Below are positions 160 through 55,814 of a stretch of 64,000 bases of DNA, in pieces. The notes under the pieces were generated by a model. It had not been told where the DNA came from. It saw only the letters and a list, made by a program, of their open reading frames with translations, and did not search any database. The position numbers and the translations under genes are program-made. Source of the stretch: Arcobacteraceae bacterium (GTDB taxonomy: Bacteria > Campylobacterota > Campylobacteria > Campylobacterales > Arcobacteraceae); contig JALNYH010000002.1 of assembly GCA_023229945.1 (NCBI GenBank), positions 21,548-85,547 of the forward strand. The letters run 5' to 3'. The number at the start of each line of letters is the position of its first letter. Positions within the stretch are counted from its first letter, which is position 1.

Positions 160-173
160 TTGACATTCATCAA
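160..173 (-). promoter_or_regulatory. FNR/DNR-type box TTGAC-ATTC-ATCAA
   Basis: Dyad centre 166.5. Minus-strand TATAAT (rc of 132..137) lies exactly 29.5 nt from the centre. About 70 nt upstream of the receiver-gene ATG at 91. Confidence 0.6.
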
Positions 174-253
174 ATTAAGAATAAAAATTTCTAATAGATA
201 AATATAAGTATTTGATATGTAGTAAAGGAAAGGAATATTTGATTTTTTCTAAA

Positions 254-658
254 TTAAAGATTTTTTTCTAAATTAATTTCATAAAAAGTTTTCTCTAAAA
301 AACTATTTTTTATTGCGGTTTTTGGCTTTTGCCAACTATCATGAAGTTGACATTTTTTATCATTATTACATAATCCATTACCAAGTACACATAACTTATA
401 ACTATTATCTGCAAGTGCATTTAGTACATCTTTGATTATAAGTTCTTTTGTATCTTTTGATAAAATAAACCCACCATATCTACCTTTAATGGAAGCTATT
501 ATATTGCTCTTGGATAGTTTTGTCATTACTTTAGTGAGATATTTGTAAGGTATATCTAAAGTATCGGATAAATATTTGGCACTATATAATTCTTGTGGTT
601 TTAAAGACATAAGACCTACCACTTTTAGGGCATATTGTGAAGTAGTATTAAGTGTCAC
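254..658 (-). CDS. Rrf2-family transcriptional regulator (NsrR/IscR-like)
   Basis: 134 aa. N-terminal wHTH (SQYALKVVGLM...DIPYKYLTKVMTKL...GRYGGF) and three clustered Cys (CVLGNGLCNNDKKC) as in Fe-S Rrf2 regulators. Last gene of the nor-operon strand. Confidence 0.8.
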   Translation of the reverse strand: MTLNTTSQYALKVVGLMSLKPQELYSAKYLSDTLDIPYKYLTKVMTKLSKSNIIASIKGRYGGFILSKDTKELIIKDVLNALADNSYKLCVLGNGLCNNDKKCQLHDSWQKPKTAIKNSFLEKTFYEINLEKNL

Positions 659-751
659 ATAGATTCCTTTAAAATTTTTTCAATTCTAACAAATTTTTCT
701 TTCTTTGTCAATAATACCATCTTTAAATCGTATATAAAAACTCACTCTACT

Positions 752-994
752 TTAGTGTAAAATAGCTATTAAAGATAATACAACTAAAAGCCAAATAAGA
801 GGTATAAGTCTATATTTAAATCTAACATTTTTCAAATCCATAAAATAATCAATAACCAACTGCCCTTTTATCAGTGTACTAAGAAGTAAAATTCCAACAA
901 GTAAATTTGGTATAAAGTCTAAATTTCCCAATACAAAAGCAAAAATAGTAAGTGCCAACAAAACTATCCAAACAATTTCTAAAGTTTTTTTCAT
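752..994 (-). CDS. small 3-TM membrane protein in the NorF / oxidase subunit IV-like position
   Basis: Start moved to MKKTLEIVWIV (ATG 994, ATGA-type overlap with the upstream gene end at 991). Hydrophobic throughout. Follows the NorE-like gene as norF does in norCBQDEF clusters. Confidence 0.45.
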   Translation of the reverse strand: MKKTLEIVWIVLLALTIFAFVLGNLDFIPNLLVGILLLSTLIKGQLVIDYFMDLKNVRFKYRLIPLIWLLVVLSLIAILH

Positions 995-1584
995 ATTATA
1001 TACACCAAAGGAAAAAGTACAATCCACAACAAATCAACCATATGCCAATATGAAGCTCCAGTTTCCAAACCACTACAATTATCTGGCGTATATCCTTGAA
1101 GTCTAGTTTTTTGATAGAGAGTAAACAATATTACCATACCCAAAATAACATGTAAAAAATGAAAAACAGTCAAAAACAGATAAAACATAAAAAACTTATT
1201 GGTACTTAGTGTAATACCTTGAGCAAATAGATGGTTAAACTCATAAATCTTAAATACCAAAAATCCTCCACCCAAAAGCATAGCTCCTAAAAGCCATTTT
1301 GATGATAGAAGACTAGTTTTGAGCAAAGAGTTTTTTGATAGTTTTATCGTGTGTACAGCTTTTGCTACAAAATAACTGCTTGTTATCAAAAGTATTGTGT
1401 TTACAAAACCTATGGTTTGATTTACCAAAACTTGCGAATCAATAAAAACTTCTAAATCTTGCTTTCTTGAATACGCATATCCCAAAAACAACAACCCAAA
1501 AGTCAACAACTCTATATAAATAATCACCCAAATTGCAAAATCCCCAGGTGGATACTGCTCTTCTACATAACTATTTTTTGACAT
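991..1584 (-). CDS. norE: cytochrome c oxidase subunit III-like protein (NorE-like)
   Basis: 197 aa, multi-TM. C-terminal HMVDLLWIVLFPLVYI and FHFLHVILG motifs are typical of CoxIII/NorE. Embedded in the nor operon. Confidence 0.7.
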   Translation of the reverse strand: MSKNSYVEEQYPPGDFAIWVIIYIELLTFGLLFLGYAYSRKQDLEVFIDSQVLVNQTIGFVNTILLITSSYFVAKAVHTIKLSKNSLLKTSLLSSKWLLGAMLLGGGFLVFKIYEFNHLFAQGITLSTNKFFMFYLFLTVFHFLHVILGMVILFTLYQKTRLQGYTPDNCSGLETGASYWHMVDLLWIVLFPLVYII

Positions 1585-2368
1585 CTAAACTCTTTGGAAA
1601 GTGCAATAGTATCAGTTTTTCAAGTACTCCTAAAACTTCACTTTCATCACTTAATGACTCTACAACTGTGTGCATACAAGCTTGGTATGGGTCAAATCCT
1701 TTGACTATAAGTTTTCCTGCATAAATAAGAAGTCTTGTTGAAACTGCTTCTTGAATATCCACATCACTAAGCTGTCTCACTTCTTTTGCTATATTGACTA
1801 GTTTTTGAGCTATTGTATCATCTATACCGCTTTCTTTTTTGATAACTTCTTTTTCTATTTCTTCTTTTGGATAATCAAAACTTAGTGAAATAAATCTTTG
1901 TTTTGTACTTGGTTTCATCCCTTTTAAAACATTTTGATACCCTGGATTATAAGATACCACAAGCATAAAATCAGGATGAGCTTCTATTGTCTCACCTGTT
2001 CTATCTATACTCAAAACCCTCCTATAATCTGCAAGAGAATGAAGCACTACTGTAGTATCTTTTCTAGCTTCTATTATCTCATCAAGATAGCAAATACCGC
2101 CATATCTAACAGCTTTTGTCAAAGGTCCATCTTGCCAATAAGTACCATTTTCACCAATAAGATGTCGCCCTATCAAATCAGCTGCACTCAAATCATCATG
2201 GCAAACAACCGTATACACATCTCTTTTTAGCTCTTCTCCCATATATTCTATAAATCTTGTTTTTCCACATCCAGTAGGTCCTTTGATAAGCACTGGCAAG
2301 TTCATCTGTGCAGCAGTTGTAAAAAGTTCCACTTCATTTGATTGGGCTAGGTAATAGTTTTTTGACAT
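1571..2368 (-). CDS. norQ: NorQ/CbbQ MoxR-type AAA+ ATPase
   Basis: 265 aa. Walker A GPTGCGKT, Walker B YLDEI. Sits between norD and norE. Confidence 0.85.
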   Translation of the reverse strand: MSKNYYLAQSNEVELFTTAAQMNLPVLIKGPTGCGKTRFIEYMGEELKRDVYTVVCHDDLSAADLIGRHLIGENGTYWQDGPLTKAVRYGGICYLDEIIEARKDTTVVLHSLADYRRVLSIDRTGETIEAHPDFMLVVSYNPGYQNVLKGMKPSTKQRFISLSFDYPKEEIEKEVIKKESGIDDTIAQKLVNIAKEVRQLSDVDIQEAVSTRLLIYAGKLIVKGFDPYQACMHTVVESLSDESEVLGVLEKLILLHFPKSLDVKK

Positions 2369-5988: not shown

Positions 5989-6099
5989 TTATAATCCTTT
6001 TTTAAATTCTACCTAGAAGTAGTATTTGGAATCATATCAAAAAAATATTAAATATTTCTTAAGCCAAGTTTTTAATACTTACAAACAAATATTTGAGTA

Positions 6100-6113
6100 T
6101 TGATATCAATCAA
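6100..6113. promoter_or_regulatory. FNR/DNR-type box TTGAT-ATCA-ATCAA shared by divergent norC and peroxidase promoters
   Basis: Centre 6106.5. Plus-strand TATAAT at 6135..6140 and minus-strand TATTAA (rc of 6072..6077), each about 29 nt from the centre. Confidence 0.6.
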
Positions 6114-6168
6114 TGGAATATTTTGTGAAATAAGTTATAATACTACCAATTACATATTGGAGTTGAAT

Positions 6169-7212: not shown

Positions 7213-7226
7213 TTGACTTAGGTCAA
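7213..7226 (+). promoter_or_regulatory. FNR/DNR-type box TTGAC-TTAG-GTCAA
   Basis: Centre 7219.5. Extended -10 TGtTAAACT at 7246..7254 (hexamer starts 29.5 nt from the centre). Upstream of the Crp/Fnr gene at 7293. Confidence 0.7.
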
Positions 7227-7292: not shown

Positions 7293-7931
7293 ATGAAGAA
7301 TATTTTACAAAATATTAAATATTTTGCTTCATTTGATGACTATAGTTTTGAAAGGTTGTCATCAATATCTTTTACAAAAAGATTGGTTAATGGTGAGATA
7401 TTATTTTATGAAGGTGATGAACCTAGATATATATATTATCTAATCAAAGGACATCTAAAGGTACTCAAAAGCCAAGGTGATTTAAAACAAGTTTATATTC
7501 ATACTATGTGTCCAGGTATGCTAGTCGCTGAAATCACAATGTTTGATGATATACTTTATCCAGCTACTTCAGAAGCTATAGGTGAATGTGAAGTATTAGC
7601 TATAAATAAAAATGATTTTATAAAAGATTTTCTAAATGACCCTTCACTTCTTAGAGAAATGTTAAAATCTCTGAGTATCAAAGTCAAATATTTGATGATG
7701 TCTATTGAATTTGAAACTACACTCACTACAGAAGTAAAAATAGCAAAATTTATCATCAATCATCAAAATGAAATTTCAAAAATCAAACATAAAGATATTG
7801 CTATGGAGCTAAATAGTACACCAGAGACAATCTCAAGAATTCTAAAAAAATTTGTAACAAATAGTTTCCTAGAAAAATCCAACCCAATCACTATCAAAAA
7901 CTTACAAGGATTAAGAATATTATGCAACTAA
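7293..7931 (+). CDS. Crp/Fnr-family transcriptional regulator (DNR/NnrR/NssR-like, no FNR Cys cluster)
   Basis: 212 aa. cNMP-binding-like beta-roll plus C-terminal HTH with PETISR (E--SR recognition motif). No N-terminal Cys cluster. Confidence 0.85.
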   Translation: MKNILQNIKYFASFDDYSFERLSSISFTKRLVNGEILFYEGDEPRYIYYLIKGHLKVLKSQGDLKQVYIHTMCPGMLVAEITMFDDILYPATSEAIGECEVLAINKNDFIKDFLNDPSLLREMLKSLSIKVKYLMMSIEFETTLTTEVKIAKFIINHQNEISKIKHKDIAMELNSTPETISRILKKFVTNSFLEKSNPITIKNLQGLRILCN

Positions 7932-8221: not shown

Positions 8222-8235
8222 TTGATGATTGTCAA
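8222..8235 (+). promoter_or_regulatory. FNR/DNR-type box TTGAT-GATT-GTCAA
   Basis: Centre 8228.5. TACAAT at 8258..8263, 29.5 nt from the centre. Upstream of the membrane protein / second norCB operon. Confidence 0.7.
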
Positions 8236-8296: not shown

Positions 8297-8626
8297 ATGT
8301 TAAATGAAATTGTTAGGTCAAGACCAGAGATTGCATTGAATGATTTTTTACCTATATTTTTATCATCATCACTTGTGCTTATTTTTGGAGTCTTTTTTGT
8401 AGCTATTTACACATTAGTCAAAATGGGTTTGCTTAGAGGTTTTTTTATGCCTTTTGCATATTTATTTTGGGGACTTCAAACATATTGTATGTATTTTATG
8501 GCTGTAACCATTCAAGTAGAACCATTTACGCAAAATGCACTTATGCTAGCAATGCTAGCATATCTTACTTTGCCTCATTTGTACTTCTATTTGAATGAAA
8601 AAGCAGACGAAAAATACGAAAATTAA
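8297..8626 (+). CDS. hypothetical 3-TM membrane protein, first gene of the second NOR operon
   Basis: 109 aa, AGGAG RBS. Hydrophobic, no family recognised. Confidence 0.5.
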   Translation: MLNEIVRSRPEIALNDFLPIFLSSSLVLIFGVFFVAIYTLVKMGLLRGFFMPFAYLFWGLQTYCMYFMAVTIQVEPFTQNALMLAMLAYLTLPHLYFYLNEKADEKYEN

Positions 8627-8644
8627 AGAAAGGGAGGTAGCAAA

Positions 8645-9292
8645 GTGTCTAAAAAAGTTTCTGTCTGGGCAGACAACAAATTTTGGCAACGATCAGCTGC
8701 ATGGGTCACAGGTTTTGCTGCGATGTTGTTAATTTGGCTTACTTTTGATAGTATGGGTCAAATTTCAATGGGAACAGCAACTGAACTAAATAATGGTGTA
8801 ACAAAAAGAGTTCCATCACCAACAGTTATAAATCATAAGGTAACTTATGAGATGAGTGAAAAAAGAGGACACGAGGTGCCAGTAATTGGTGGTAAAGAAT
8901 TGTTTTTTGGAAGAGATGATTATAGTGAAGAAGAAGCTGGTGCATTACTTCGTCTTGGAAAGCTAGGCATACAGGCAAAAAACTGTATGAATTGTCATAC
9001 ACTTCTTGGAAATGGTGCATATTATGCTCCAGATTTGACAAAAGCTTGGCTTGACCCTATGTGGGAAAGCTATATAGCAAGAACTGAAAAATCTACAAAA
9101 GAAGAGGCTATTGCAGAGTTTTTACAAAACCCTTCAATGTATCCATCACATGAAAGAATGATGCCAAATCTTGGCATAACTGCTGAAGAAGCAAAAGGAA
9201 TCGTAGCCTTTTTGAAACATATGTCTTCAATTGATACAAATGGTTTCCCTAGAAACTTCGGAAGAATGCAAGGAGCTATCCATGGTAAATAG
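8645..9292 (+). CDS. NorC-like membrane-anchored monoheme cytochrome c (second copy, extended)
   Basis: GTG start after GGGAGG. 215 aa, TM anchor, CMNCH followed by GNGAYYAPDL (same context as NorC at 5542..5988), but about 65 aa longer. Confidence 0.75.
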   Translation: MSKKVSVWADNKFWQRSAAWVTGFAAMLLIWLTFDSMGQISMGTATELNNGVTKRVPSPTVINHKVTYEMSEKRGHEVPVIGGKELFFGRDDYSEEEAGALLRLGKLGIQAKNCMNCHTLLGNGAYYAPDLTKAWLDPMWESYIARTEKSTKEEAIAEFLQNPSMYPSHERMMPNLGITAEEAKGIVAFLKHMSSIDTNGFPRNFGRMQGAIHGK

Positions 9293-10709
9293 TTTTAATA
9301 CTTTACAATATGAATCAAAAAAATTAGGTGTTATGTATTTTACAGTAGCAGCTATACTTTTAGGGGCTCAATTATTACTAGGACTAGTTGCTGCAATTCA
9401 GTTTATTTATCCAAGTTTTTTATTTGAAATTTTAGATTTTAATGTTGCTAGAATGGTACATATTAATGCTCTTGTAGTTTGGTTACTTTATGCGATGATT
9501 GGTTCTGTTTACTTTTTGATGCCAGATGAAACTGGGATTGAAACTGTAGGAATTGGTCTTGGCAAACTTGGATTTTATGTCTTAACTGCAGCTGTTACTG
9601 TTGTTGTTTTGGTATATATTTTGGTACAAGTTGGACCTGCTAGTGAATCTACAATATGGCTTATTAATGAAGGTAGAGAATATATAGAAGCTCCAAGATG
9701 GGCTGATATTGGTATCGTTGTAGTTGTTTTAGTTTTTTTAGCAAATGTTTATCTAACTGCTATAAAAGGTGAAAGAACAGGAATTATGACTGTATTGATG
9801 GCTGACCTTATGGCTCTTGCTGGGCTTTATTTAGCTGGTATGTTTTATACAGACAATATTTCTATGGATCAATACTGGTGGTGGTGGGTTATCCACTTAT
9901 GGGTTGAAGCAACTTGGGAAGTATTCGTAGCTTCTATTATTGGATGGGCGTTAATCAAGATTATTGGTGCAAACAGAGAAATAGTAGAAATGTGGTTATG
10001 GATTGAAGTTGCAATGCTTTTTGGTTCTGGAATTTTGGGTATAGGACACCATTATTTTTGGATTGGAACACCTGAATATTGGTGGGAAATTGGGGCATTA
10101 TTTAGTGCTTTAGAGCCTATTCCATTGGTTGCTATGTTTGTACATGTTATGTATGACTGGGGTAAAGAAGCTGGAGTCAAAAAAGCTCATGGTGAAGAAG
10201 CTGTTATGAACAACAACCCTGCATTTTTATGGTTTGTTGGGAGTGCATTTGGAAACTTCCTTGGTGCTGGTGTATGGGGCTTTTTCCACACATTACCACA
10301 AGTAAATATTTATACACATGGTACTCAGTTTACTGCAGCTCATGGTCACCTTGCATTTTTCGGTGCTTTTGCGATGGCGATGATTGCTATGTTTTATATG
10401 GGTGTTCAAGCTACCAACGGTATAGAAAGAATGAAAATGACATTTGCATCAAAAATGGGATTTGCATTGATTTGTATCGGTGTTGTAGGGATGACTGTAG
10501 CTCTTACAATAGCAGGTTATGGACAAGTTCTTGTTGAAAGAGCTCAAATGGGTGCTACTTGGGAAGCTTACTTTATCTCTCAAAATGGTCATTGGTTCCT
10601 TCAAGCGATGGGCTGGAGACTTGTAATGGGTATTGTAACACTTGTTGGTTTTGCTTATTTGGTTTATGATTTGCTAACAATTGGTAAATCTAAAGTTCAA
10701 AACGGTTAA
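9282..10709 (+). CDS. NorB-like nitric oxide reductase large subunit (second copy)
   Basis: Start moved to MVNSFNTLQY (ATG 9282, 11-nt overlap with the upstream stop). [19 protein letters not shown] and [12 protein letters not shown] conserved as in cNOR NorB. Confidence 0.8.
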   Translation: MVNSFNTLQYESKKLGVMYFTVAAILLGAQLLLGLVAAIQFIYPSFLFEILDFNVARMVHINALVVWLLYAMIGSVYFLMPDETGIETVGIGLGKLGFYVLTAAVTVVVLVYILVQVGPASESTIWLINEGREYIEAPRWADIGIVVVVLVFLANVYLTAIKGERTGIMTVLMADLMALAGLYLAGMFYTDNISMDQYWWWWVIHLWVEATWEVFVASIIGWALIKIIGANREIVEMWLWIEVAMLFGSGILGIGHHYFWIGTPEYWWEIGALFSALEPIPLVAMFVHVMYDWGKEAGVKKAHGEEAVMNNNPAFLWFVGSAFGNFLGAGVWGFFHTLPQVNIYTHGTQFTAAHGHLAFFGAFAMAMIAMFYMGVQATNGIERMKMTFASKMGFALICIGVVGMTVALTIAGYGQVLVERAQMGATWEAYFISQNGHWFLQAMGWRLVMGIVTLVGFAYLVYDLLTIGKSKVQNG

Positions 10710-10719
10710 GGAGTAAATT

Positions 10720-10878
10720 ATGATAGAACCATTTACAGATATTGTACCAAGTTTTTTTGGTATGTTAAATCAAGGTCCATTGACATTGACATTATTCTTG
10801 CATACGGTGATTATATTACCTATGTTTTGGATATATGCTCAAGAAAAGAAAAGATTGGAAGAAGAAAACCAAGATTAA
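10720..10878 (+). CDS. possible 52-aa single-TM protein downstream of the second norB
   Basis: Hand-translated MIEPFTDIVPSFFGMLNQGPLTLTLFLHTVIILPMFWIYAQEKKRLEEENQD. AAGGAG 7 nt upstream of the ATG. Below the ORF-track size cutoff. Confidence 0.4.
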   Translation: MIEPFTDIVPSFFGMLNQGPLTLTLFLHTVIILPMFWIYAQEKKRLEEENQD

Positions 10879-10886
10879 AAAAAGTT

Positions 10887-10916
10887 ATATAGAAGAGAGG
10901 AAAGTCTCTTCTATAT
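10887..10916 (+). terminator. 12-bp perfect hairpin after the second NOR operon
   Basis: atatagaagaga / tctcttctatat arms with loop ggaaag. No clear T-tract, so possibly only a partial terminator ahead of nirS. Confidence 0.45.
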
Positions 10917-11007
10917 GTAAGTTTGAGAAAACTTGTCGGGATGATAACTTATTTTTTATAAATCTAAGTTTAATCCAAATAAATGATTTTTTATATAAGG
11001 AGAAAGT

Positions 11008-12660
11008 ATGAAATTATCAAGATTTTTAAGCGTAGCAGCAATTGCTTGCATAGGTTTTGTTGGTACGGCTCAAGCAGAGGTTAAATTATCAGTTGCAGAA
11101 ATGGAACATGCTACACAAATTTATTTCGATAGATGTGCAGGATGCCATGGTATGCTTAGAAAAGGGGCTTTAGGACCTGCACTAACACCTGAAAAACTTA
11201 AAGAAAAAGGTTATGATTCAGCATCACTGAAACATATTATTCATGAAGGTACACCTGGTGGTATGCCAGAGTGGGGAAAATCTGGAGAGATTACAGCTGC
11301 TGAGACTGATTTGATGGCTAAATATATCCAGCTTCCAGCACCTCAACCACCTGAAAAATCTCTAAAAGATATGAAAGATACACACAAAGTATTGATACCT
11401 GTAAAAGATAGACCAAAAGCTCCTGAAATGAAAAACTGGAAAGACTATTTTGCAGTAATTTTAAGAGATGTTGGGCAAATTGCTATTATTGATGGTGTTA
11501 CTAAAGATATAATGTCTGTTGTTCCATCAGGTTATGCAACACACATTACTAGAACTGGTGCATCTGGAAGATATATGTATGTAATTGGTAGAGATGGTAA
11601 AGCATCTGTTATCGACCTTTGGATGAAAGAGCCAAAGAATGTTGCTGAAATTAGAGTTTGTAACGATGCAAGAGCTATTGATACATCAAAACACAAAGAT
11701 TTCCTAGATAAATATGCGGTTGTTGGTTGTTATTGGCCACCATCTATTGTAACACTAGAAGCTGAAACACTAGAACCTCTCAAAATCGTATCAACTGCAA
11801 GTTATACTTGGGATACTGGTGAATATACAAGAGAAGCAAGAGTTGCAGCTATTATAGCATCACACGACAAACCTGAGTGGGTTATCAATATCAAAGAAAC
11901 TGGACAAGTTTGGCTATATGATTATTCAAATATTATGAATCCAAAAATTACAATGGTTAATGCTGAAAGATTCTTGCATGATGGTGGTTGGGATTTATCA
12001 AAAAGATATTTCATGACTGCAGCTAATTCAAGACATATTATTTCTGTTATTGATACAAAAGAGGGAAAACTAGTTGCTAATATCCCATCTCAAGGGAATA
12101 TTCCACATCCAGGAAGAGGTGTGAATGTAGACCATCCTAAATTTGGTCCAGTTTGGGGAACAGGTCATATTGGCTCTGCTGATATAGTGTTCATTGGAAC
12201 TGACCCAAAAAATCATCCAAAAAATGCGTGGAAAGTTGTTAAAAAAATCAAACTTCCAGGTGATGGCGGAGGAAATCTATTTATCAAAGGTCATCCAAAT
12301 TCAAAATATATATTTGTTGATAGACCAGTGAATCCAGATAGAGAGCTACAAACTCAAATTTATGTAATCGATAGAGATACACTAGAGTTTGTAAAAACTA
12401 TCAAAATAGATCCAAAATACCTAGAACCAGCAAAAACTGCTGATGGTAAAGAGATTCAAGCAAGAGGACCAGTGCATTTTGAATTTAATGCTGATGGTTC
12501 AGAAGTTTGGACAAGTATTTGGGGTAATAAGCTTAAAGCATCTCCTATTTTAATTTATGATACAAAAACATTAGAACTTAAAAAAGTAATTAATGACGAA
12601 AGACTTAAAACACCAACTGGTAAATTTAATGTAACCAACACAATGACGGATACTTATTAA
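11008..12660 (+). CDS. nirS: cytochrome cd1 nitrite reductase NirS
   Basis: 550 aa. Signal peptide, CAGCH heme c domain, long d1 beta-propeller domain. AGGAG RBS. Confidence 0.92.
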   Translation: MKLSRFLSVAAIACIGFVGTAQAEVKLSVAEMEHATQIYFDRCAGCHGMLRKGALGPALTPEKLKEKGYDSASLKHIIHEGTPGGMPEWGKSGEITAAETDLMAKYIQLPAPQPPEKSLKDMKDTHKVLIPVKDRPKAPEMKNWKDYFAVILRDVGQIAIIDGVTKDIMSVVPSGYATHITRTGASGRYMYVIGRDGKASVIDLWMKEPKNVAEIRVCNDARAIDTSKHKDFLDKYAVVGCYWPPSIVTLEAETLEPLKIVSTASYTWDTGEYTREARVAAIIASHDKPEWVINIKETGQVWLYDYSNIMNPKITMVNAERFLHDGGWDLSKRYFMTAANSRHIISVIDTKEGKLVANIPSQGNIPHPGRGVNVDHPKFGPVWGTGHIGSADIVFIGTDPKNHPKNAWKVVKKIKLPGDGGGNLFIKGHPNSKYIFVDRPVNPDRELQTQIYVIDRDTLEFVKTIKIDPKYLEPAKTADGKEIQARGPVHFEFNADGSEVWTSIWGNKLKASPILIYDTKTLELKKVINDERLKTPTGKFNVTNTMTDTY

Positions 12661-12683
12661 TTTTACAAATTTATTTTAAATAT

Positions 12684-12710
12684 CAAGCCTTTGGGCTTGG
12701 TATTTTTTTT
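12684..12710 (+). terminator. intrinsic terminator/attenuator after nirS
   Basis: caagcc-tttg-ggcttg stem-loop followed by an 8-T run, then the GGAGG RBS of nirN. Confidence 0.7.
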
Positions 12711-12720
12711 GGAGGAATTT

Positions 12721-14289
12721 ATGAAAACAACGATTTTATATACTATGGTTTTGACTCTTTTTTTAAGTAATGCAAATGCTATTGATAGTGCGGCTGGGCA
12801 TATGGTAGAAGCATTGCCTAAAAAAGAAGTTGGGAAAGAGCTTTATAATCAATATTGCTCATCATGTCACCATACCAAAAGAGTAGGAAAAGATGGGCCA
12901 CCTTTACTACCAGACAATCTAAAAAAATATACCATCAATGACCTAGCTTCAAAAATCAAAGATGGCTTTCCTCAAACACTTATGCCAAAATATGATTTTC
13001 TAAATCCATATGAGCTTTTGAAAATTGCTCAATATATCAAGTCTGATTCGGATGTAGATACTACATGGAATAGTGAAGATATCACAAAATCTATTGTGAC
13101 ATTTGATGACCCATATTCACCACTTGATATCAAAGACAAAGAGCAAATTTTGCCAGTTGTAGAAAGAGATGGCAATAAAGTTTGGATTATGGAAGATACG
13201 AGAGTTTTGAGTAAATTTGAATTAGCCAATGTACATGGCGGAATCAAATACACAATGGATGCAAAAAACATATATGTACCTACTAGAGATGGATATATAC
13301 AAAGATATTCACTACAAAGTGGACAAAGACTCAACAAAACTAGAGCTTGTATAAATCTACGCAATATTTCTCTTAGTCGAGATGGAGAAAAAATATTTGC
13401 CACATGCCTCTTACCAGAGCAACTCGTAATTCTAGATTCTCAAACAATGCTACCAAGTCATATAGAAAAGCTTGATGGCAAAGTTTCGGCACTGTATGAG
13501 TTTTATTCCAAAGATGAAGCTGTATTTACTTTTAGAAATAAACCATTGTTAGCTACAATCAACACAAACACTTTTGAAATCAAATATCAAACAATAAAAG
13601 AGCCAATTGAGGACTTTTTCATAGACCCATTTGAGGATTTTTTGATAGGAACAGCAAGAAGAGGTGATATATTGAGTGTGTATGACCTCAATAAAAATAA
13701 GTATGTTTTTGAACATGCAATGAAAGGTATGCCACATCTTTTTTCTGCTACTTATTGGTATGAAAATGGTAACTTTTATTTTGCAACTCCACATATCAAA
13801 AAACCTTATTTGACTATATGGAAAATGTATGACTGGGAATTTACAAAACAAGTTGAAATAGGTGGCGATGGTTTTTTTGTCAAAACACATCCAAATACTC
13901 CTTATCTTTGGACGGATAATGGAAGTGACGAGCTAGTATTGATATCAAAAAAAGATTATCAAATCAAAAAAATAGTACCTAGAAAAGGGAAACAATATAT
14001 CCATACAGAATATAGTGGAGATGGTAAATATGCCTATTTGAGTATATACGAAAAAGATGGAGAGATTATGGTCTTGGATACTCAAAATTTCAAAGAATTA
14101 GCTTCATATGATGCAAATATGCCAGTTGGTAAATATAATTTTATCAATAAAAACAGAGAATTTTATCCAAGGCTTTTTGGGATTGATATTTTTAAAGAAA
14201 AATGCAACAATACTCTACCTTGTAATACAAATGGGCTAAACAAATATGAAAGCCAAAGTTTAAGTGACTTTCTTGAGTCAATCAAATAA
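12721..14289 (+). CDS. nirN: NirN-like cd1-family protein (c-heme + beta-propeller; dihydro-heme d1 dehydrogenase family)
   Basis: Start moved to MKTTILYTMV (ATG 12721 after GGAGG). CSSCH heme c motif plus cd1-type propeller length. Follows nirS. Confidence 0.75.
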   Translation: MKTTILYTMVLTLFLSNANAIDSAAGHMVEALPKKEVGKELYNQYCSSCHHTKRVGKDGPPLLPDNLKKYTINDLASKIKDGFPQTLMPKYDFLNPYELLKIAQYIKSDSDVDTTWNSEDITKSIVTFDDPYSPLDIKDKEQILPVVERDGNKVWIMEDTRVLSKFELANVHGGIKYTMDAKNIYVPTRDGYIQRYSLQSGQRLNKTRACINLRNISLSRDGEKIFATCLLPEQLVILDSQTMLPSHIEKLDGKVSALYEFYSKDEAVFTFRNKPLLATINTNTFEIKYQTIKEPIEDFFIDPFEDFLIGTARRGDILSVYDLNKNKYVFEHAMKGMPHLFSATYWYENGNFYFATPHIKKPYLTIWKMYDWEFTKQVEIGGDGFFVKTHPNTPYLWTDNGSDELVLISKKDYQIKKIVPRKGKQYIHTEYSGDGKYAYLSIYEKDGEIMVLDTQNFKELASYDANMPVGKYNFINKNREFYPRLFGIDIFKEKCNNTLPCNTNGLNKYESQSLSDFLESIK

Positions 14290-14321
14290 TGATAAATTAA
14301 AAACATAAAATAAGGAAAACA

Positions 14322-15134
14322 ATGAAAACTTTTAAAACATTACTAATACTACTATTTTGCGGAATAAGCCTAAATGGTCAGAGTTTTGCCACGGTAAATG
14401 GTGAAAATGTCACAATAGAAGATATAAACATAGTGCTAAAATCATACGAACAAGCACCAGCTTTTAGTGAATTATCAAAAGTAGATAAAGAGTTTGTAAT
14501 CAATCAAGCAATAGAAGCAAAACTAATACAACAAATTGCAAAAAAAGAAAAAATCCAAAATAGAGATGATTATACGAGTGCCTTGAGCGATATACAAAAT
14601 CAACTTTTGATAGAAATATGGATGAAAACAAATTTGGAAAAAATTACTATCACAAAAGAAGAAGTTGAAACTTCTTATAAGCAAAATATAGCTGATTACA
14701 AACAGCCTTTACAAGTAAAAGCTAGGCATATTATAGTAGAAACTCAAAAAGAAGCCCAAGATATAATAAATGAGCTAAACAACACAAAAACAGATATTCA
14801 AGGAAAATTCATAGAACTTGCAAACACAAAATCCATAGAACCTACAGCCAATACAAGAGGTGGGGATTTGGGATGGTTCAAACAAGGTGATATGCTAGAA
14901 GAATTTTGGCAAGAATCTTTGTCTTTAGAGGTAGAAAGCTACTCCAATAAACCTTTGCAAACCCCTTTTGGATACCATATAGTATTTCTTGATGGCAAAA
15001 AAGAACCATACACTATCAGCCTAGAAAATGTATATACAGCTATAGAAAACAAACTAAAAATGGACAAACTACAACTAAGTGTTGGCAAAAGACTAGAAGA
15101 AATCAAGAAAAATGCAAAGATTTCTATAAATTAG
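14322..15134 (+). CDS. parvulin-type peptidyl-prolyl cis-trans isomerase (PpiC/SurA-like), periplasmic
   Basis: 270 aa. Signal peptide, ARHIIV...GGDLGWF...FGYHIV parvulin motifs. Confidence 0.8.
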   Translation: MKTFKTLLILLFCGISLNGQSFATVNGENVTIEDINIVLKSYEQAPAFSELSKVDKEFVINQAIEAKLIQQIAKKEKIQNRDDYTSALSDIQNQLLIEIWMKTNLEKITITKEEVETSYKQNIADYKQPLQVKARHIIVETQKEAQDIINELNNTKTDIQGKFIELANTKSIEPTANTRGGDLGWFKQGDMLEEFWQESLSLEVESYSNKPLQTPFGYHIVFLDGKKEPYTISLENVYTAIENKLKMDKLQLSVGKRLEEIKKNAKISIN

Positions 15135-17864: not shown

Positions 17865-17881
17865 ATATATCCTTTTATAAG

Positions 17882-25063: not shown

Positions 25064-25077
25064 TTGATGTATATCAA
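25064..25077. promoter_or_regulatory. FNR/DNR-type box TTGAT-GTAT-ATCAA shared by the divergent d1 operon and trpD2-like gene
   Basis: Centre 25070.5. Plus TATTAT at 25100..25105 and minus TACTAT (rc of 25036..25041), both 29.5 nt from the centre. Confidence 0.65.
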
Positions 25078-26061: not shown

Positions 26062-26075
26062 ATGACTTAAGTCAA
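26062..26075 (+). promoter_or_regulatory. FNR/DNR-type box aTGAC-TTAA-GTCAA (nosZ promoter)
   Basis: Centre 26068.5. TGtTAAACT at 26095..26103. The 42 nt from the box to the -10 are about 90% identical to 7214..7256. Confidence 0.7.
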
Positions 26076-28784: not shown

Positions 28785-28798
28785 TTGATTTAAGTCAA
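28785..28798 (+). promoter_or_regulatory. FNR/DNR-type box TTGAT-TTAA-GTCAA (nosB promoter)
   Basis: Centre 28791.5. TACAAT at 28821..28826, 29.5 nt from the centre. Confidence 0.7.
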
Positions 28799-38973: not shown

Positions 38974-38987
38974 TTGACTATTGTCAA
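38974..38987 (+). promoter_or_regulatory. FNR/DNR-type box TTGAC-TATT-GTCAA (autoregulatory position)
   Basis: Centre 38980.5. TAGAAT at 39010..39015, 29.5 nt from the centre. The palindrome extends to ttcattgac...gtcaatgaa. Confidence 0.7.
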
Positions 38988-39096: not shown

Positions 39097-39768
39097 ATGT
39101 TGCGTAAATATTTAAAAGAGTTTTTTACAAGCTTCTCATCAGAAATGATTGACAAAGTTATTGACATGTCTTATTTTAGTAAACTAAATAAAGATAATAT
39201 CTTATTTTACGAAGGTGATGAACCAAAATACCTATATCTAATAGTTGAAGGGGTTGCATCAGTATACAAAACATACGAAGATGGCTCAACCCAAGTATTA
39301 AAATATTTTTATCCACTAAGTCTAATAGCAGAACTTGCAAATATCCAGAATATTCCATATCCAGCAAGTTGTAGATGTGAAGAAGACTCTAAATTTGTTG
39401 TTATAGATTATGAAAAATACCAAAAGAACTTTTCAACCAATCCACTAACTTCCAATAATGCCGCAACACTATTACTTCATTCTATTGCATCAAAGCTATA
39501 TTTTCATATCAATGAAAACAACCTAAGACCTATGAAGAATATCTCCATTATACAAAGAATTTCTGGTATGTTACTACAAGATTGTGACTACCTAAATCGC
39601 ACAAAAAGGTGGAAAGTTGCACAAGATTTATGTATATCTTCTGAGACACTCTCAAGAAATCTAAAAAAACTAAAATCCTTAAAAGCCATCAAAATTGAAA
39701 AAACTAAAATAACTGTTTTAGATGAAAATATTTTAGAAGCCATCATACAAGGGAATACTATAGAATAA
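39097..39768 (+). CDS. Crp/Fnr-family transcriptional regulator (second paralogue)
   Basis: Start moved to MLRKYLKEFF (ATG 39097, GGAGG 8 nt upstream). HTH with SETLSR. No FNR Cys cluster. Confidence 0.8.
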   Translation: MLRKYLKEFFTSFSSEMIDKVIDMSYFSKLNKDNILFYEGDEPKYLYLIVEGVASVYKTYEDGSTQVLKYFYPLSLIAELANIQNIPYPASCRCEEDSKFVVIDYEKYQKNFSTNPLTSNNAATLLLHSIASKLYFHINENNLRPMKNISIIQRISGMLLQDCDYLNRTKRWKVAQDLCISSETLSRNLKKLKSLKAIKIEKTKITVLDENILEAIIQGNTIE

Positions 39769-39780: not shown

Positions 39781-39794
39781 TTGACTCCCATCAA
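39781..39794 (+). promoter_or_regulatory. FNR/DNR-type box TTGAC-TCCC-ATCAA (MCP promoter)
   Basis: Centre 39787.5. TATAGT at 39817..39822, 29.5 nt from the centre. Confidence 0.7.
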
Positions 39795-39872: not shown

Positions 39873-42071
39873 ATGTTTAAAAATTTTTATATTAAGACTA
39901 AGTTACTTATTCTTTTTATTATCCCATTGTTGGCTGTCTTAATTCTTCTTGTGGTTAAGTTTATAGAATTAAACCAAAGCCTTTCCAATGCAACCAAAGC
40001 AGCTTCTATTGAAGAGATTAGAGGAATTGGTGACATCATACACAATTTACAAGTTGAAAGAGGCTTAAGTGCTAGATATATAGCTTCAAATGGAACAAAT
40101 TTTAAAGATGTATTGCAAGAACAAAGAACTCTATCAGCGAGTTCTATCAATAAGTTAATAAATTTCCAAACACAACAAAACAATATCATAGCTTCTCAAA
40201 TTGTTAAAGATTTAGACACAAAAAGAAATCTTATAGATACATTATCATATAATTTAAATCAAAGTGGCAGTTACTATAGTGATATGATATCTCAACTTCT
40301 AAATTACTATCGAACCATTTTACTAAAATCAAAATTACCACAAATTAAAAATGATTTACTAGCTCACTATTGGCTTTTACTAGCAAAAGAAAACTTTGGT
40401 CAATTAAGAGCAAATTTAGCAATAACTTTTCGACAAAAATATTTTTCTGATGATATATTACAAAAATCTAGTGCTAATCAAGCTACTATAATACTTGGCT
40501 TTCAAAACTTTGAATCAGATGCAAATATCGATATTGTCAATTATTTCAAAAAAACTTTTCAAGGAGAAAGTGTAGATACTACAAACAATATGATTCAAAT
40601 TGCTTTTGAAAAGCAAAAAGATGATTGTGGGAATATTGAACCATCTTTATGGTTTGACACAGCCACAAAAAGTATTGATATTCTAAAAAATATTGAAGAT
40701 TATAGTATAGCACATATAGAATCAACTATGAAAAAAACAATCTCTTCTATTTATTTTGAGATTATGAAAGACTTAATCATCAGCTTGGTTCTAATCATTG
40801 TAGTAATATTTTTATATCTTCAAATCTCAAAAGATATTCTTACATCTTTAGAGTCATTTAAAAATGGGTTATCACTATTTTTTGATTTCTTAAATAAAAA
40901 ATCAAATAATGCCAACAGTATTGATATAAATAATAAAGATGAATTTGGTCAAATGGCTAAATTAATAAATGAAAATATAGAAAAAACTCAAGTCATGATT
41001 TCACTAGATAATGAAGTAATAGCTGATGCAAAAAATGTTGTTGCAAGGGTAAATAATGGATGGTATAGCCAATGTATTGAAGCAACAACTACAAATGAAT
41101 CACTAGAACAATTTAAAGAAAGTGTTAATGAAATGATAGTAAATACAAAAAATAGATTTTTAGATGTAAATAATATCTTAAATCTCTATACAAAACATGA
41201 CTACACAAAAACTCTTCACCTAAAGCCTACAGATGAAAAAGGTGGGGTTTTAGAATCATTAATTTTAGGTGTTAACTCTTTACAAAATTCTATTACACAG
41301 ATGCTTATCCAAAACCAAACAAATGGAACTACACTTGATAAAAGCTCAAATATTTTACTTCAAAATGTAAATACCCTAAGTCATAGTGCAAATTCCGCTG
41401 CAGCTGCATTAGAAGAAACTGCTGCGGCACTTGAAGAAATTACTGCCACAGTTGTCAGTAATTCATCAAATATTCTTCAAATGTCACAATATTCAAAAGA
41501 AGTTATAAACTCAGCAAAAAAAGGGCAAGAATTAGCCAAAAACACATCAACAGCTATGGATGAAATAACAACTCAAGTTCATACTATAAATGAAGCTATA
41601 GCTGTAATCGATCAAATATCATTTCAAACAAATATTCTATCCTTAAACGCTGCAGTTGAAGCAGCAACTGCTGGAGAAGCTGGAAAAGGATTTGCAGTAG
41701 TTGCTGCAGAAGTGCGAAACCTAGCATCAAGAAGTGCTGAAGCTGCCAAGGAGATAAAGTATATTGTAGAGATAGCTACATCCAAAGCCAATTTAGGTAA
41801 ATCAATAAGTAGTGAAATGATAAAAGGATATGATGAACTTTTGCAAAATATTGATAAAACTACAGCAACAATTTCAGAAATTGCAAATGCTTCCAAAGAA
41901 CAAGAAGCTGGTATTACACAAATAAATGATGCAGTAACTGGACTTGATCGCCAAACTCAAGAAAATGCCTCCATAGCATCTCAAACACATGATATTGCAA
42001 TACAAACTGACAATATTGCAAAAGCAATAGTATCTGATGTCATAAATAAGCAATTTATTGGCAAAAGTTGA
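39873..42071 (+). CDS. methyl-accepting chemotaxis protein with a NIT-like (nitrate/nitrite-sensing) periplasmic domain
   Basis: 732 aa. TM1, large helical sensor with IIHNLQVERGLSARYIASNG (NIT-like motif), TM2, HAMP, conserved MCP signalling hairpin ([34 protein letters not shown]). Confidence 0.8.
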   Translation: MFKNFYIKTKLLILFIIPLLAVLILLVVKFIELNQSLSNATKAASIEEIRGIGDIIHNLQVERGLSARYIASNGTNFKDVLQEQRTLSASSINKLINFQTQQNNIIASQIVKDLDTKRNLIDTLSYNLNQSGSYYSDMISQLLNYYRTILLKSKLPQIKNDLLAHYWLLLAKENFGQLRANLAITFRQKYFSDDILQKSSANQATIILGFQNFESDANIDIVNYFKKTFQGESVDTTNNMIQIAFEKQKDDCGNIEPSLWFDTATKSIDILKNIEDYSIAHIESTMKKTISSIYFEIMKDLIISLVLIIVVIFLYLQISKDILTSLESFKNGLSLFFDFLNKKSNNANSIDINNKDEFGQMAKLINENIEKTQVMISLDNEVIADAKNVVARVNNGWYSQCIEATTTNESLEQFKESVNEMIVNTKNRFLDVNNILNLYTKHDYTKTLHLKPTDEKGGVLESLILGVNSLQNSITQMLIQNQTNGTTLDKSSNILLQNVNTLSHSANSAAAALEETAAALEEITATVVSNSSNILQMSQYSKEVINSAKKGQELAKNTSTAMDEITTQVHTINEAIAVIDQISFQTNILSLNAAVEAATAGEAGKGFAVVAAEVRNLASRSAEAAKEIKYIVEIATSKANLGKSISSEMIKGYDELLQNIDKTTATISEIANASKEQEAGITQINDAVTGLDRQTQENASIASQTHDIAIQTDNIAKAIVSDVINKQFIGKS

Positions 42072-42142
42072 TTTGTATCAATGATAATAATTATGAAAGC
42101 TGTTAATATTCACCTAATTTCATAAGTAATTAAGGAGAAAAA

Positions 42143-44825: not shown

Positions 44826-44839
44826 TTGATTTATATCAA
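44826..44839 (-). promoter_or_regulatory. FNR/DNR-type box TTGAT-TTAT-ATCAA
   Basis: Centre 44832.5. Minus-strand TAAAAT (rc of 44798..44803) 29.5 nt from the centre. Serves the gene starting at 44762. Confidence 0.65.
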
Positions 44840-45055: not shown

Positions 45056-45069
45056 TTGACTTTTGTCAA
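45056..45069. promoter_or_regulatory. orphan FNR/DNR-type box TTGAC-TTTT-GTCAA with no CDS nearby
   Basis: Centre 45062.5. Minus-strand TGtTAATAT (rc of 45028..45036) at the canonical 29.5 nt; plus-strand ATTAAT at 45092..45097. The 17-nt core cttgacttttgtcaaat is identical to the nrdD box. Confidence 0.55.
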
Positions 45070-49217: not shown

Positions 49218-49273
49218 AATCACACCCTCAAAAATCGTTTTGTGTATATTAGCAAAAAGGGAAAAGGATTGTC

Positions 49274-49287
49274 TTGACTTTTGTCAA
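49274..49287 (-). promoter_or_regulatory. FNR/DNR-type box TTGAC-TTTT-GTCAA (nrdD promoter)
   Basis: Centre 49280.5. Minus-strand TGcTAATAT (rc of 49246..49254), hexamer 29.5 nt from the centre. Confidence 0.7.
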
Positions 49288-54011: not shown

Positions 54012-54035
54012 CCTTTGGGTATAATAACCCAAAGG
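54012..54035 (+). promoter_or_regulatory. 9-bp perfect hairpin overlapping the RBS of the third Crp/Fnr gene
   Basis: cctttgggt-ataata-acccaaagg. The right arm contains the AAAGG Shine-Dalgarno for ATG 54036/54042. Confidence 0.5.
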
Positions 54036-54041
54036 ATGTAT

Positions 54042-54668
54042 ATGTACAAAATTCTCAAACAAATTGATTTCTTCGCAAACTTTAGTGATGAAGATTTTGC
54101 AAAACTAGAACAACATATAAGTTTCAAAAAATACAATCAAGATAATATCGTATTTTACGAATCAGATACCCCAAAATATTTTTATATACTAATAAGTGGA
54201 GAAGTAAACGCCACCAAATCAAACTTCAAAAACAATCCAGTTTTGATAAATACATTTAGAGCTGTATCTTTTATAGCAGAAATGGCAGTAATAGAAAACA
54301 TCCCTTTCCCTGCAACTGCCACTTGTGCCAATGAATGTGAAATCATCCAAATCACAAAAGAACCATTACTAGATTTAATAAAATCAGATACAAATATAGC
54401 CTTTGGTATCATCAAATCCCTCACCAAAAAGATAAAAACCCTAGAACATACCATAAATATAAATATATTATTTGATGCCACCCAAAAAGTTATGTCCCAC
54501 ATACTAAACAACCCCGACTCCCTAAAAACATCAAAACACACCCACATAGCAAAAATCCTAAACACCACTCCAGAAACCCTATCAAGAACAATAAAAAAAC
54601 TAAAAGACCAAAACATAATAGACGACAACTACAATGTTGATATTGAGAAATTAAAGATGTTGATATAA
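54042..54668 (+). CDS. Crp/Fnr-family transcriptional regulator (third paralogue)
   Basis: Start at MYKILKQIDFF (ATG 54042; 54036 also possible). HTH with PETLSR. No FNR Cys cluster. Confidence 0.8.
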   Translation: MYKILKQIDFFANFSDEDFAKLEQHISFKKYNQDNIVFYESDTPKYFYILISGEVNATKSNFKNNPVLINTFRAVSFIAEMAVIENIPFPATATCANECEIIQITKEPLLDLIKSDTNIAFGIIKSLTKKIKTLEHTININILFDATQKVMSHILNNPDSLKTSKHTHIAKILNTTPETLSRTIKKLKDQNIIDDNYNVDIEKLKMLI

Positions 54669-54747
54669 AACCAAAACAATAATTTTTGTCTTTATTAAGT
54701 AATATTATGATATAAATTAAAATTACTTTTACAAAAGAGGTAGCATA

Positions 54748-55734
54748 ATGCAAAATAAAATAGAATTATTCCAATCATCAAATGGAATGATAGAATTTAA
54801 AAGTGATAGTGAACACGAAACTATTTGGGCAAGCTTAGACCAAATTGCACAGCTTTTTGGAAGAGACAAATCAGGTATTTCACGACATATCAAAAATATT
54901 TTTAAAAGTGGTGAGTTAGATGAGTTTTCAACTGTTGCAAAAATTGCAACAGCTCAAACAGAGGGTAAAAGAGAAGTTGTGAGAGAAATTGAATATTTCA
55001 ATCTTGATATGATTTTATCGATTGGATATAGAGTTGATTCAAAAGAAGCGACACACTTTCGTAAATGGGCGACATCTGTCCTCAAAAAATACCTCACAGA
55101 TGGATATGCCATAAATGAATCAAAAATATCACAAACCAAAACAATACTTCAAAACCTAAAGCAAACAATAGAGTTTTTGACCACTAAACAAATAGGTGAA
55201 GAAAAAGAGATACTTTCCTTACTTCAAAACTACACCAAAACTCTTTCACTACTTGAGAGTTATGATAAAGCAAATATTGAAGATTTTGATGGAAGAACTA
55301 CAGCTTATGAGCTCACTTACGATGAAGTGAAAAATGTATTAGCACAACTCAAAAATAGTCTCATCACGAAAAAAGAAGCAACAGAACTTTTTGCAAATGA
55401 AAAGGATGACCAATTAGCTGGAATCATAGGGAACCTTTACCAAACATTCGCAGGAGTAGAACTATACCCAAGCATAGAAGACAAGGCTTCAAATCTACTA
55501 TATTTTATCATCAAAGACCATCCTTTTAATGACGGCAACAAAAGAAGTGCAAGTTTCTTGTTTGTTTATTTTCTTGATAAGTGCGATTACCTCTACAAAG
55601 AAAATGGTGAAAAAAAGATAAATGACAATGCTTTGACTACATTAACCCTACTTGTAGCATCAAGTGATCCAAAGGAAAAAGATATTTTGATAAAACTCAT
55701 CAAACATCTGATTTTTGAAAAAGAGGTTATCTAA
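54748..55734 (+). CDS. RhuM-like N-domain + Fic/DOC domain protein
   Basis: 328 aa. Fic core motif HPFNDGNKRSA. N-terminal region typical of RhuM-type virulence-protein annotations. Confidence 0.7.
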   Translation: MQNKIELFQSSNGMIEFKSDSEHETIWASLDQIAQLFGRDKSGISRHIKNIFKSGELDEFSTVAKIATAQTEGKREVVREIEYFNLDMILSIGYRVDSKEATHFRKWATSVLKKYLTDGYAINESKISQTKTILQNLKQTIEFLTTKQIGEEKEILSLLQNYTKTLSLLESYDKANIEDFDGRTTAYELTYDEVKNVLAQLKNSLITKKEATELFANEKDDQLAGIIGNLYQTFAGVELYPSIEDKASNLLYFIIKDHPFNDGNKRSASFLFVYFLDKCDYLYKENGEKKINDNALTTLTLLVASSDPKEKDILIKLIKHLIFEKEVI

Positions 55735-55800
55735 AATATGGTCTTTTGCATATTTGTTTGAAGTAACTCAGCATACATATTGTCCTAATTTCACCGTATA

Positions 55801-55814
55801 TTGATATAAATCAA
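55801..55814 (+). promoter_or_regulatory. FNR/DNR-type box TTGAT-ATAA-ATCAA (hemerythrin operon)
   Basis: Centre 55807.5. TAAACT at 55837..55842, 29.5 nt from the centre. Confidence 0.7.

Follow-up and report, generated by a model that had tools for sequence, protein, structure and literature searches.

A 64-kb stretch of the genome of an uncultured Arcobacteraceae bacterium (64,000 nucleotides (nt) of contig JALNYH010000002.1, GenBank assembly GCA_023229945.1; hereafter the window) carries an island of denitrification genes whose promoters share a palindromic box, TTGA(T/C)-N4-(A/G)TCAA, at a nearly fixed distance from a −10 hexamer. We consider it very likely that these boxes are sites for class II activators of the Crp/Fnr family which switch on the genes for the conversion of nitrate to N2, and that they are read by Crp/Fnr paralogues encoded in the island itself. 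In the mechanism that we propose, the box would be centred ~41.5 bp upstream of the transcription start in place of a −35 element, and the bound dimer would recruit RNA polymerase to a TANNNT −10 hexamer starting 29.5 nt from the dyad. The readers would most likely be one or more of four island paralogues, three of them in the window and one ~5.4 kb to its left, and the regulon would be switched on under low oxygen and/or by N-oxide signals. Its predicted pathway genes are nap, nirS and the heme d1 synthesis genes, two NOR-type oxidases, and nosZ with the nos accessory genes; nrdD, the cytochrome c peroxidase gene (ccp), a hemerythrin/DnrN-like gene, YgbA_NO, a NIT chemoreceptor and a response regulator with an HD(-GYP-type) domain would be accessory targets. 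A sequence-only reading of the window had arrived at the same core, i.e., FNR/DNR-type boxes in class II geometry that define a denitrification regulon with readers devoid of the FNR cysteine cluster, and the enrichment, rigid spacing, conservation and recognition helix described below are all favourable to it.

Exact boxes are confined to intergenic DNA

The exact pattern TTGAYNNNNRTCAA occurs 13 times in the window, compared to 0.85 matches expected from dinucleotide-preserving shuffles, none of which (0 of 100) gave more than three. According to a gene map built from contig look-ups, intergenic DNA accounts for only 7.6% of the window and is 75% A+T, yet it holds all 13 exact boxes as well as a one-mismatch site at 26062, and there are no exact boxes in the 59 kb of coding DNA. 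When the intergenic regions alone (~4.8 kb) were each shuffled separately with their composition kept, 0.04 sites were obtained per trial, with a maximum of two in 5000 trials. One-mismatch matches within genes number 12, as many as chance predicts, and none of them has a −10 hexamer at the right distance. The earlier reading had placed every box between genes, which holds for the 13 exact sites and for 26062, and the comparison of intergenic with coding DNA that it proposed, run within the window with the exact pattern, gives 13 against zero. Twelve of its 13 coordinates are exact matches, whereas the box at 26062 is ATGACTTAAGTCAA with one mismatch, and an exact site at 42068 had been overlooked. 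Together, these 14 sites make up 16 promoters, with boxes 6100 and 25064 facing genes both ways:

160..173, − strand: exact box TTGACATTCATCAA, facing left to the gene for a response regulator with an HD(-GYP-type) domain (start near 91, extending off the window); TATAAT at 132-137 (− strand), 29.5 nt from the dyad; leader ~34 nt
6100..6113, both strands: exact divergent box TTGATATCAATCAA between norC (−, start 5988) and the cytochrome c peroxidase gene (+, start 6169); TATAAT at 6136-6141 on the + side and TATTAA at 6072-6077 on the − side, both 29.5 nt from the dyad
7213..7226, + strand: exact box TTGACTTAGGTCAA before Crp/Fnr paralogue 1; TAAACT at 7249-7254; leader ~32 nt
8222..8235, + strand: exact box TTGATGATTGTCAA before the operon of a 109-amino-acid (aa) protein, a cytochrome c (cytC) and a COX1-family protein (109aa-cytC-COX1, second NOR-like operon); TACAAT at 8258-8263
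25064..25077, both strands: exact divergent box TTGATGTATATCAA between the heme d1 operon (−, start 25008) and a TrpD2/YbiB-like gene (+, 25130); TATTAT at 25100-25105 (+) and TACTAT at 25036-25041 (−), both 29.5 nt from the dyad
26062..26075, + strand: one-mismatch box ATGACTTAAGTCAA before nosZ; TAAACT at 26098-26103
28785..28798, + strand: exact box TTGATTTAAGTCAA before nosB and the nos accessory operon (28858-38943); TACAAT at 28821-28826
38974..38987, + strand: exact box TTGACTATTGTCAA before Crp/Fnr paralogue 2; TAGAAT at 39010-39015; leader ~75 nt
39781..39794, + strand: exact box TTGACTCCCATCAA before a NIT-domain chemoreceptor (NIT-MCP) gene; TATAGT at 39817-39822
42068..42081, + strand: exact box TTGATTTGTATCAA, new in this analysis, overlapping the NIT-MCP stop codon by 4 nt and lying 61 nt upstream of a 98-aa open reading frame (ORF) at 42143; TAATAT at 42104-42109
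44826..44839, − strand: exact box TTGATTTATATCAA before an FmdE-like gene (44169-44762, −); TAAAAT at 44798-44803; leader ~29 nt
45056..45069, − strand: exact orphan box TTGACTTTTGTCAA, 230 nt upstream of the FmdE box; TAATAT at 45028-45033
49274..49287, − strand: exact box TTGACTTTTGTCAA before nrdD (anaerobic ribonucleotide reductase); TAATAT at 49246-49251; leader ~22 nt
55801..55814, + strand: exact box TTGATATAAATCAA before a hemerythrin-domain (DnrN/YtfE-like) gene followed by genes for proteins of 75, 403 and 253 aa; TAAACT at 55837-55842

Two pairs of promoters have identical boxes, i.e., those of the FmdE-like and hemerythrin-domain genes and those at 45056 and before nrdD. The target identities given by the sequence-only reading are borne out by Pfam, with COX1, Cytochrom_C, VWA, CbbQ_C and CCP_MauG domains around box 6100, further COX3, COX4_pro and Rrf2 genes in the norCBDQ cluster, the heme d1 genes, ATP-cone and NRDD domains in nrdD (nrdG is also present), and a Hemerythrin domain in the gene behind box 55801, which has weak matches to the YtfE, DnrN and RIC models. 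The TrpD2/YbiB-like gene was likewise identified by Pfam and has a YbiB-like match as well. The nos accessory genes are of the epsilonproteobacterial type, and the window also has two cytochrome cd1 genes. Behind box 42068, the operon consists of a DUF2249-like gene (98 aa), a 405-aa membrane protein and a FeS_assembly_P gene.

No box was found between 55.8 and 67.9 kb, a stretch with MCP, dnaX, murI, rho and Dct genes, nor in the housekeeping flanks of related loci. Weaker sites were considered before the third Crp/Fnr gene and the peroxiredoxin, TsdA-like, two-component operon, Fic and second MCP genes, and were rejected, as none combines the box with the −10 geometry.

Downstream of the orphan box 45056 there is no convincing ORF, and the 178 nt following it fold no better than shuffled sequences (z = −0.75). 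A scan of the whole window against Rfam at gathering thresholds gave no match, and with such a fold and only unconvincing small ORFs an assignment as small RNA promoter gains no support. The box may mark either a second, distal promoter of the FmdE-like gene or the start of a non-coding transcript.

The −10 hexamer lies at a nearly invariant distance from the box

Class II promoters of Escherichia coli FNR carry TTGAT-N4-ATCAA centred at −41.5. In the window, each of the 14 sites has on its gene-facing side a TANNNT hexamer whose first base lies exactly 29.5 nt from the dyad. Counted by promoter, it is found at this offset in 15 of 16 cases, compared to 0-4 at each other offset from 7.5 to 52.5 nt; with a TANNNT base rate of 4.8% in the intergenic DNA of the window, the binomial probability of 15/16 is ~2e-19. 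The lone imperfect −10 hexamer is on the norC side of box 6100 (TATTAA), where the final T is absent. The box-to-hexamer spacing noted earlier is confirmed, as are the divergent arrangements at 6100 and 25064, with genes on both sides and −10-like hexamers in both directions at 29.5 nt. In contrast, the 28.5-nt spacing that had been assigned to the ccp side of box 6100 is incorrect, as the TATAAT on this side also begins at 29.5 nt.

If transcription starts are put ~41.5 nt from the dyad, the leaders are 18-77 nt long. The start codons of the box-driven genes are preceded by AG-rich ribosome-binding sequences (AGGAG/GGAG-like), and a G at −14 in 7 of the 16 promoters indicates an extended −10 tendency. 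The predicted occupancy of the box is −48 to −35, which leaves no room for a −35 hexamer.

The island extends beyond the left end of the window

The same metagenome contig continues to the left with a fourth Crp/Fnr gene (crp4) and genes for YgbA_NO, MOSC, a PilJ-domain protein and NapA, and three more exact boxes:

L060 15173-18253: left extension, ~4.5-7.6 kb before the first position of the window

The MOSC and YgbA_NO promoters have their −10 hexamers at 29.5 nt, whereas those of crp4 and napA have them at 30.5 nt. Thus, the spacing that had been called invariant is nearly, not strictly, so for the island as a whole, which comprises at least 17 sites and 20 promoters over ~63 kb.

Box and −10 hexamer are conserved in other genomes

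Comparison loci were fetched via nosZ and via orthologues of Crp/Fnr paralogue 1, and their promoters were aligned by eye. A box with a −10 hexamer at 29.5 nt precedes orthologous genes in eight other genomes, with loci from Arcobacteraceae and other Campylobacterota and nosZ loci of Mucispirillum and Deferribacterales. The 109aa-cytC-COX1 promoter has an orthologous box with this spacing in five loci (L006, L038, L055, L057, L059), with leaders of 24-28 nt compared to 27 nt in the window. Exact boxes precede nosZ in L006, L038, L037, L026 (Mucispirillum) and L027 (Deferribacterales), and the nosZ promoter of L054 shares with window site 26062 the same T1-to-A mismatch, the same −10 hexamer and the same 24-nt leader. 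One-mismatch orthologous sites, again with the −10 hexamer at 29.5 nt, precede nosB in L006 and L038. The divergent arrangement of the heme d1 operon and the TrpD2-like gene recurs in L055 and the d1 operon box in L059; L054 and L059 carry orthologous boxes before the operon of the DUF2249-like gene, the ~400-aa membrane protein and FeS_assembly_P as well as boxes upstream of their genes resembling paralogue 1, and the NIT-MCP gene of L057 has a box with its −10 hexamer at 29.5 nt. The motif is not present in the nos loci of Campylobacter concisus. In the aligned orthologous promoters, box and −10 hexamer are kept but the 22-nt spacers between them differ, as would be expected if a transcription factor site with fixed geometry is functional.

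nirS probably belongs to the operon behind box 8222

The sequence-only reading had remarked that nirS itself has no box. This is literally correct, as no site with up to two mismatches and a −10 hexamer was found in 10879-11007; however, nirS sits in a conserved cluster headed by box 8222:

8297..15134, + strand: putative operon, based on gene order and Pfam: 109aa, cytC, COX1, 52aa, nirS, second cytochrome cd1-like gene, PpiC

The order paralogue 1, 68aa, 109aa, cytC, COX1, small ORF, nirS is kept in L055, L057 and L059, where gaps of 53-60 nt or an overlap precede nirS. This conserved gene order makes nirS a probable distal member of the operon that starts at box 8222, and a nirS promoter with its own box was rejected, as the operon order accounts for nirS. 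In the window, the gap before nirS is 130 nt long and contains a perfect 12-bp AT-rich hairpin at 10888-10917 (ATATAGAAGAGA/TCTCTTCTATAT) without a T-run. This hairpin could serve to process or stabilise the RNA, or could act as a weak attenuator, and the gap might also contain an internal promoter or a site of RNA processing.

The second NOR-like cluster (8297-10878) consists of the 109aa gene, a 215-aa cytochrome c, a 475-aa COX1-family protein and a conserved ORF of ~50 aa, and is always found between paralogue 1 and nirS in related genomes.

Four Crp/Fnr paralogues share an FNR-type recognition helix

The earlier reading had counted three Crp/Fnr paralogues. There are at least four, with the fourth (crp4; 217 aa, helix QPETLSR, PF00027 and PF13545) just left of the window and the following three in it:

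7293..7931, + strand: Crp/Fnr paralogue 1 (crp1), 212 aa, helix PETISR; Pfam cNMP_binding and HTH_Crp_2
39097..39768, + strand: Crp/Fnr paralogue 2 (crp2), 223 aa, helix SETLSR; Pfam cNMP_binding
54042..54668, + strand: Crp/Fnr paralogue 3 (crp3), 208 aa, helix PETLSR; cNMP_binding and HTH_Crp_2; no box upstream, nor any site of up to two mismatches with a −10 hexamer

The superfamily domains PF00027 and PF13545 were detected in crp1, crp3 and crp4, and PF00027 in crp2, whose helix-turn-helix is seen through alignment and through full-length matches to the FtrB and CRP models. Pairwise identity among the three window paralogues is only 25-32%. The ET(I/L)SR helix ascribed to them is recovered by alignment, and E-T-x-S-R is invariant in all four, preceded by Pro or Ser at the position of CRP residue 180. 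Among 20 crp1 orthologues, E, T, S and R are likewise invariant and position 180 is Ser or Pro; His70, Cys99, His166 and Cys211 are nearly invariant. In L055-L059, crp1 lies directly upstream of the 68aa, 109aa, cytC, COX1 and nirS genes. Boxes before crp1, crp2 and crp4 suggest autoregulation or a cascade.

E. coli FNR binds its [4Fe-4S] cluster through Cys20, Cys23, Cys29 and Cys122. In agreement with the earlier reading, no FNR cysteine cluster is present in the paralogues: crp1-3 have no Cys in their first 70 residues, and the first Cys of crp4 is near position 92. The FNR model of NCBIfam scores 21-26 bits against them, far below its cut-off of 228. In the PDB, they match generic Crp proteins (E ~1e-8) at least as well as DNR (3dkw; E = 1e-5 to 5e-4), and FNR is not matched at E <= 1e-3. 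An assignment to a named subfamily was rejected, as NCBIfam, PDB and cluster names yield generic Crp/Fnr only.

In the analysis of Rodionov et al. 2005 (PMC1274295), Ser/Pro-180 and Glu-181 go with TTGAC-N4-GTCAA motifs, as in HcpR1-type proteins, whereas Ala-180/Gln-181 of C. jejuni NssR is linked to TTAAC-N4-GTTAA. The island proteins have Pro/Ser-180 and Glu-181 in a helix of the Glu-181/Arg-185 type (E--SR), and their boxes read TTGA rather than TTAA; the DNA-reading heads are thus of the FNR/DNR/HcpR type and not of the NssR type.

A shared promoter element hints at a determinant outside the box

As a discriminator between paralogues, T versus C at position 5 of the box was rejected as a simple rule, since orthologous promoters of the second NOR-like operon flip between TTGAT and TTGAC half-sites. 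The crp1 and nosZ promoter spacers are identical at 19 of 22 positions, compared to a mean of 8.5 (standard deviation 2.7) for all pairs, and share the 17-nt TTAATTTTTTGTTAAAC between box and −10 hexamer (7237-7253 in the crp1 promoter, 26086-26102 in the nosZ promoter). The pattern TTAAT-N5-GTTAAAC also occurs in the L054 nosZ promoter (TTAATTATTTGTTAAAC, 9953-9969) and was not found elsewhere in the window or the comparison loci. This element could be a second-factor site or a paralogue-specific determinant, and as a lead it hints at a determinant outside the box. That all four paralogues would read one box type with the choice of promoter encoded outside it, the crp1/nosZ element marking a circuit specific to one paralogue or co-regulator, is a speculative and rather doubtful proposal; by analogy, such a circuit might respond, e.g., to N2O or nitrate like Wolinella NssC or NssA. 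If true, this would provide a sequence handle on the selective induction of N2O reductase.

Alternative readings

A true [4Fe-4S] FNR encoded elsewhere might read the boxes, with minor or different roles for the island paralogues. The box is the canonical FNR consensus, only ~82 kb of the genome were covered in all, and nrdD and ccp, which are classical FNR/ANR targets in other bacteria, are among the box-driven genes. However, four regulators with a matching helix are encoded in the island, three of them with boxes of their own, crp1 keeps its place directly upstream of 109aa-cytC-COX1-nirS across genomes, and according to a review the genomes of Campylobacterota encode no orthologue of FNR (PMC6682613), so that we regard this reading as improbable.

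We give similarly little credence to the boxes being repressor operators, at which a Crp/Fnr protein over the −35 position would block RNA polymerase until a signal arrives. The box does cover this position, sites of this type are used by some Dnr paralogues of Dinoroseobacter shibae to repress nap and nos (PMC5398030), and a Crp/Fnr gene of Nitrosophilus labii correlated negatively with nosZ expression (PMC11539149). Against this, the promoters have no −35 element of their own, and the −10 distance is fixed to the nucleotide at the class II optimum, a fixity that a pure roadblock would not need.

TA-rich hexamers are common in intergenic DNA of this A+T content, but a chance or repeat-element feature without regulatory role is refuted by the coding and offset counts, the intergenic shuffles (0.04 sites against 13), flanks and spacers that are unrelated save one pair, and the conservation of sites before orthologues in other genomes, and its probability is next to nil.

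Several points weigh against activation by the island paralogues. The norC-side −10 hexamer is imperfect, and site 45056 has no obvious target. The regulators are distant Crp/Fnr members with all NCBIfam equivalog matches far under the cut-offs, which makes a DNR or Nss label one of analogy and not of orthology, and a regulator encoded beyond the ~82 kb covered could read the boxes. A search for RNA runs holding the window sequence matched only DNA metagenomes. Even so, sites for class II activators read by the island paralogues are what we consider very likely.

Comparison with known systems

In its architecture the island follows the textbook class II scheme of FNR/DNR regulation, and it reveals no new mechanism. 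Shared with E. coli FNR class II promoters are the palindrome, the replaced −35 element, the 29.5 nt from dyad to first base of the hexamer, and nrdD and ccp as targets; in contrast to FNR, the candidate regulators have no N-terminal Cys cluster and do not match FNR in the PDB, so that the signal is probably not oxygen acting on an Fe-S cluster. Like DNR, NnrR and HcpR (PMC1274295), they are Crp/Fnr proteins free of the Cys cluster, predicted here to be activators, with FNR-like boxes before nir, nor, nos and dnrN-like genes. The island differs in belonging to the Campylobacterota and in encoding at least four paralogues, and the likeness is one of analogy, not orthology.

Within the same phylum, Wolinella succinogenes employs three Nss regulators, NssA, NssB and NssC, for its responses to nitrate, NO and N2O (PMC6682613; Kern and Simon 2016, as cited in PMC6682613 and PMC11539149), and the consensus used for them is TTGA-N6-TCAA. 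As predicted for the island, several Crp/Fnr paralogues there control nap and nos together; Wolinella, however, ammonifies nitrite and has no nirS. The likeness to Nss regulators lies in phylum, target set and box consensus, with database names here being a generic "Crp/Fnr family". C. jejuni NssR differs in its Ala-180/Gln-181 and TTAAC-N4-GTTAA motif from the Glu-181 and TTGA boxes found here.

In the related N. labii HRV44, exact TTGA-N6-TCAA boxes precede napA, norE and nosB, with their first base 48-49 nt from RNA-seq-derived starts (PMC11539149), so that the centre of the box falls at −41.5 or −42.5. This measured spacing equals the geometry predicted here, and Crp/Fnr genes lie beside nap and nor in that genome as well. 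N. labii has two regulators compared to four here, fewer exact sites, and only degenerate sites at nosZ. The cascade of FnrL with DnrD, DnrE and DnrF in D. shibae includes bidirectional boxes between divergent denitrification operons at −39.5/−41.5 (PMC5398030) and resembles the island in its four Crp/Fnr paralogues, single box type, bidirectional boxes and box-controlled regulator genes. However, D. shibae is an alphaproteobacterium, one of its four is a genuine Fe-S FNR, and its boxes show more degeneracy than the sites here, which are exact in an all-or-none manner. How several paralogues share a single box is a question already raised by Wolinella, Paracoccus, Pseudomonas and Dinoroseobacter.

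Further observations on the island genes

The nrdD gene behind box 49274 appears split. Its 693-aa ORF stops at 47136 after a CPKCDEE zinc-ribbon motif and is followed by a perfect heptamer tandem repeat (TACCACC x 10.3, 47067-47138) with stops in every frame; beyond the repeat, the glycyl-radical motif TRVMGYHRPV is found in a separate ORF of 59 aa, which has a ribosome-binding site of its own (region 46818-47138, − strand). Either the anaerobic ribonucleotide reductase is made in two pieces, or expansion of the repeat has disrupted the gene.

The last gene of the nor operon (254-658, − strand) encodes the Rrf2-family regulator, with C-x6-C-x5-C-x2-H resembling the Fe-S ligands of IscR/NsrR, which may be an NO-sensing repressor alongside the Crp/Fnr activators. 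To the left of position 91, the response regulator is one gene of 346 aa in the ENA contig and is split into ORFs of 242 and 89 aa in a Logan assembly of another sample (L002/L061 versus L060), reflecting either strain variation or an assembly frameshift.

Two polytopic membrane proteins of ~400 aa (42455-43672 and 56649-57860) are paralogues (26% identity, E = 4e-10) that match no Pfam family. Each is encoded in a box-driven operon, with a homologue in the same operon in L054 and L059, and they are candidate accessory proteins of denitrification or NO stress. Between the nir genes and the heme d1 operon, ~5 kb (14300-19450) of unannotated small genes and an NTP_transf_2 nucleotidyltransferase gene are devoid of boxes and look like an insertion into the island.

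NosZ shares 84-87% identity with proteins from metagenome-assembled genomes of Arcobacteraceae and Aliarcobacter, and the window sequence was found in landfill, oil-facility, hydrocarbon and sediment metagenomes.

Implications

Reviews describe respiratory regulation in Campylobacterota as little known, and Arcobacter butzleri is reported to have no FNR/CRP homologue (PMC6682613), beside which the four paralogues of this Arcobacteraceae lineage are mildly notable. The island adds candidate members to such a regulon, i.e., nrdD, the NIT chemoreceptor, the response regulator with an HD(-GYP-type) domain, the FmdE-like and TrpD2-like genes, YgbA_NO, MOSC and the operon of DUF2249, membrane protein and DUF59. 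With exact, all-or-none sites and a fixed geometry, it yields unambiguous predictions for transcription starts and for DNA affinity purification sequencing (DAP-seq). The 17 sites and 20 promoters provide a testable regulon map for complete denitrification in a lineage of uncultured Arcobacteraceae sampled in landfill and oil-field metagenomes, whose nosZ belongs to clade II.

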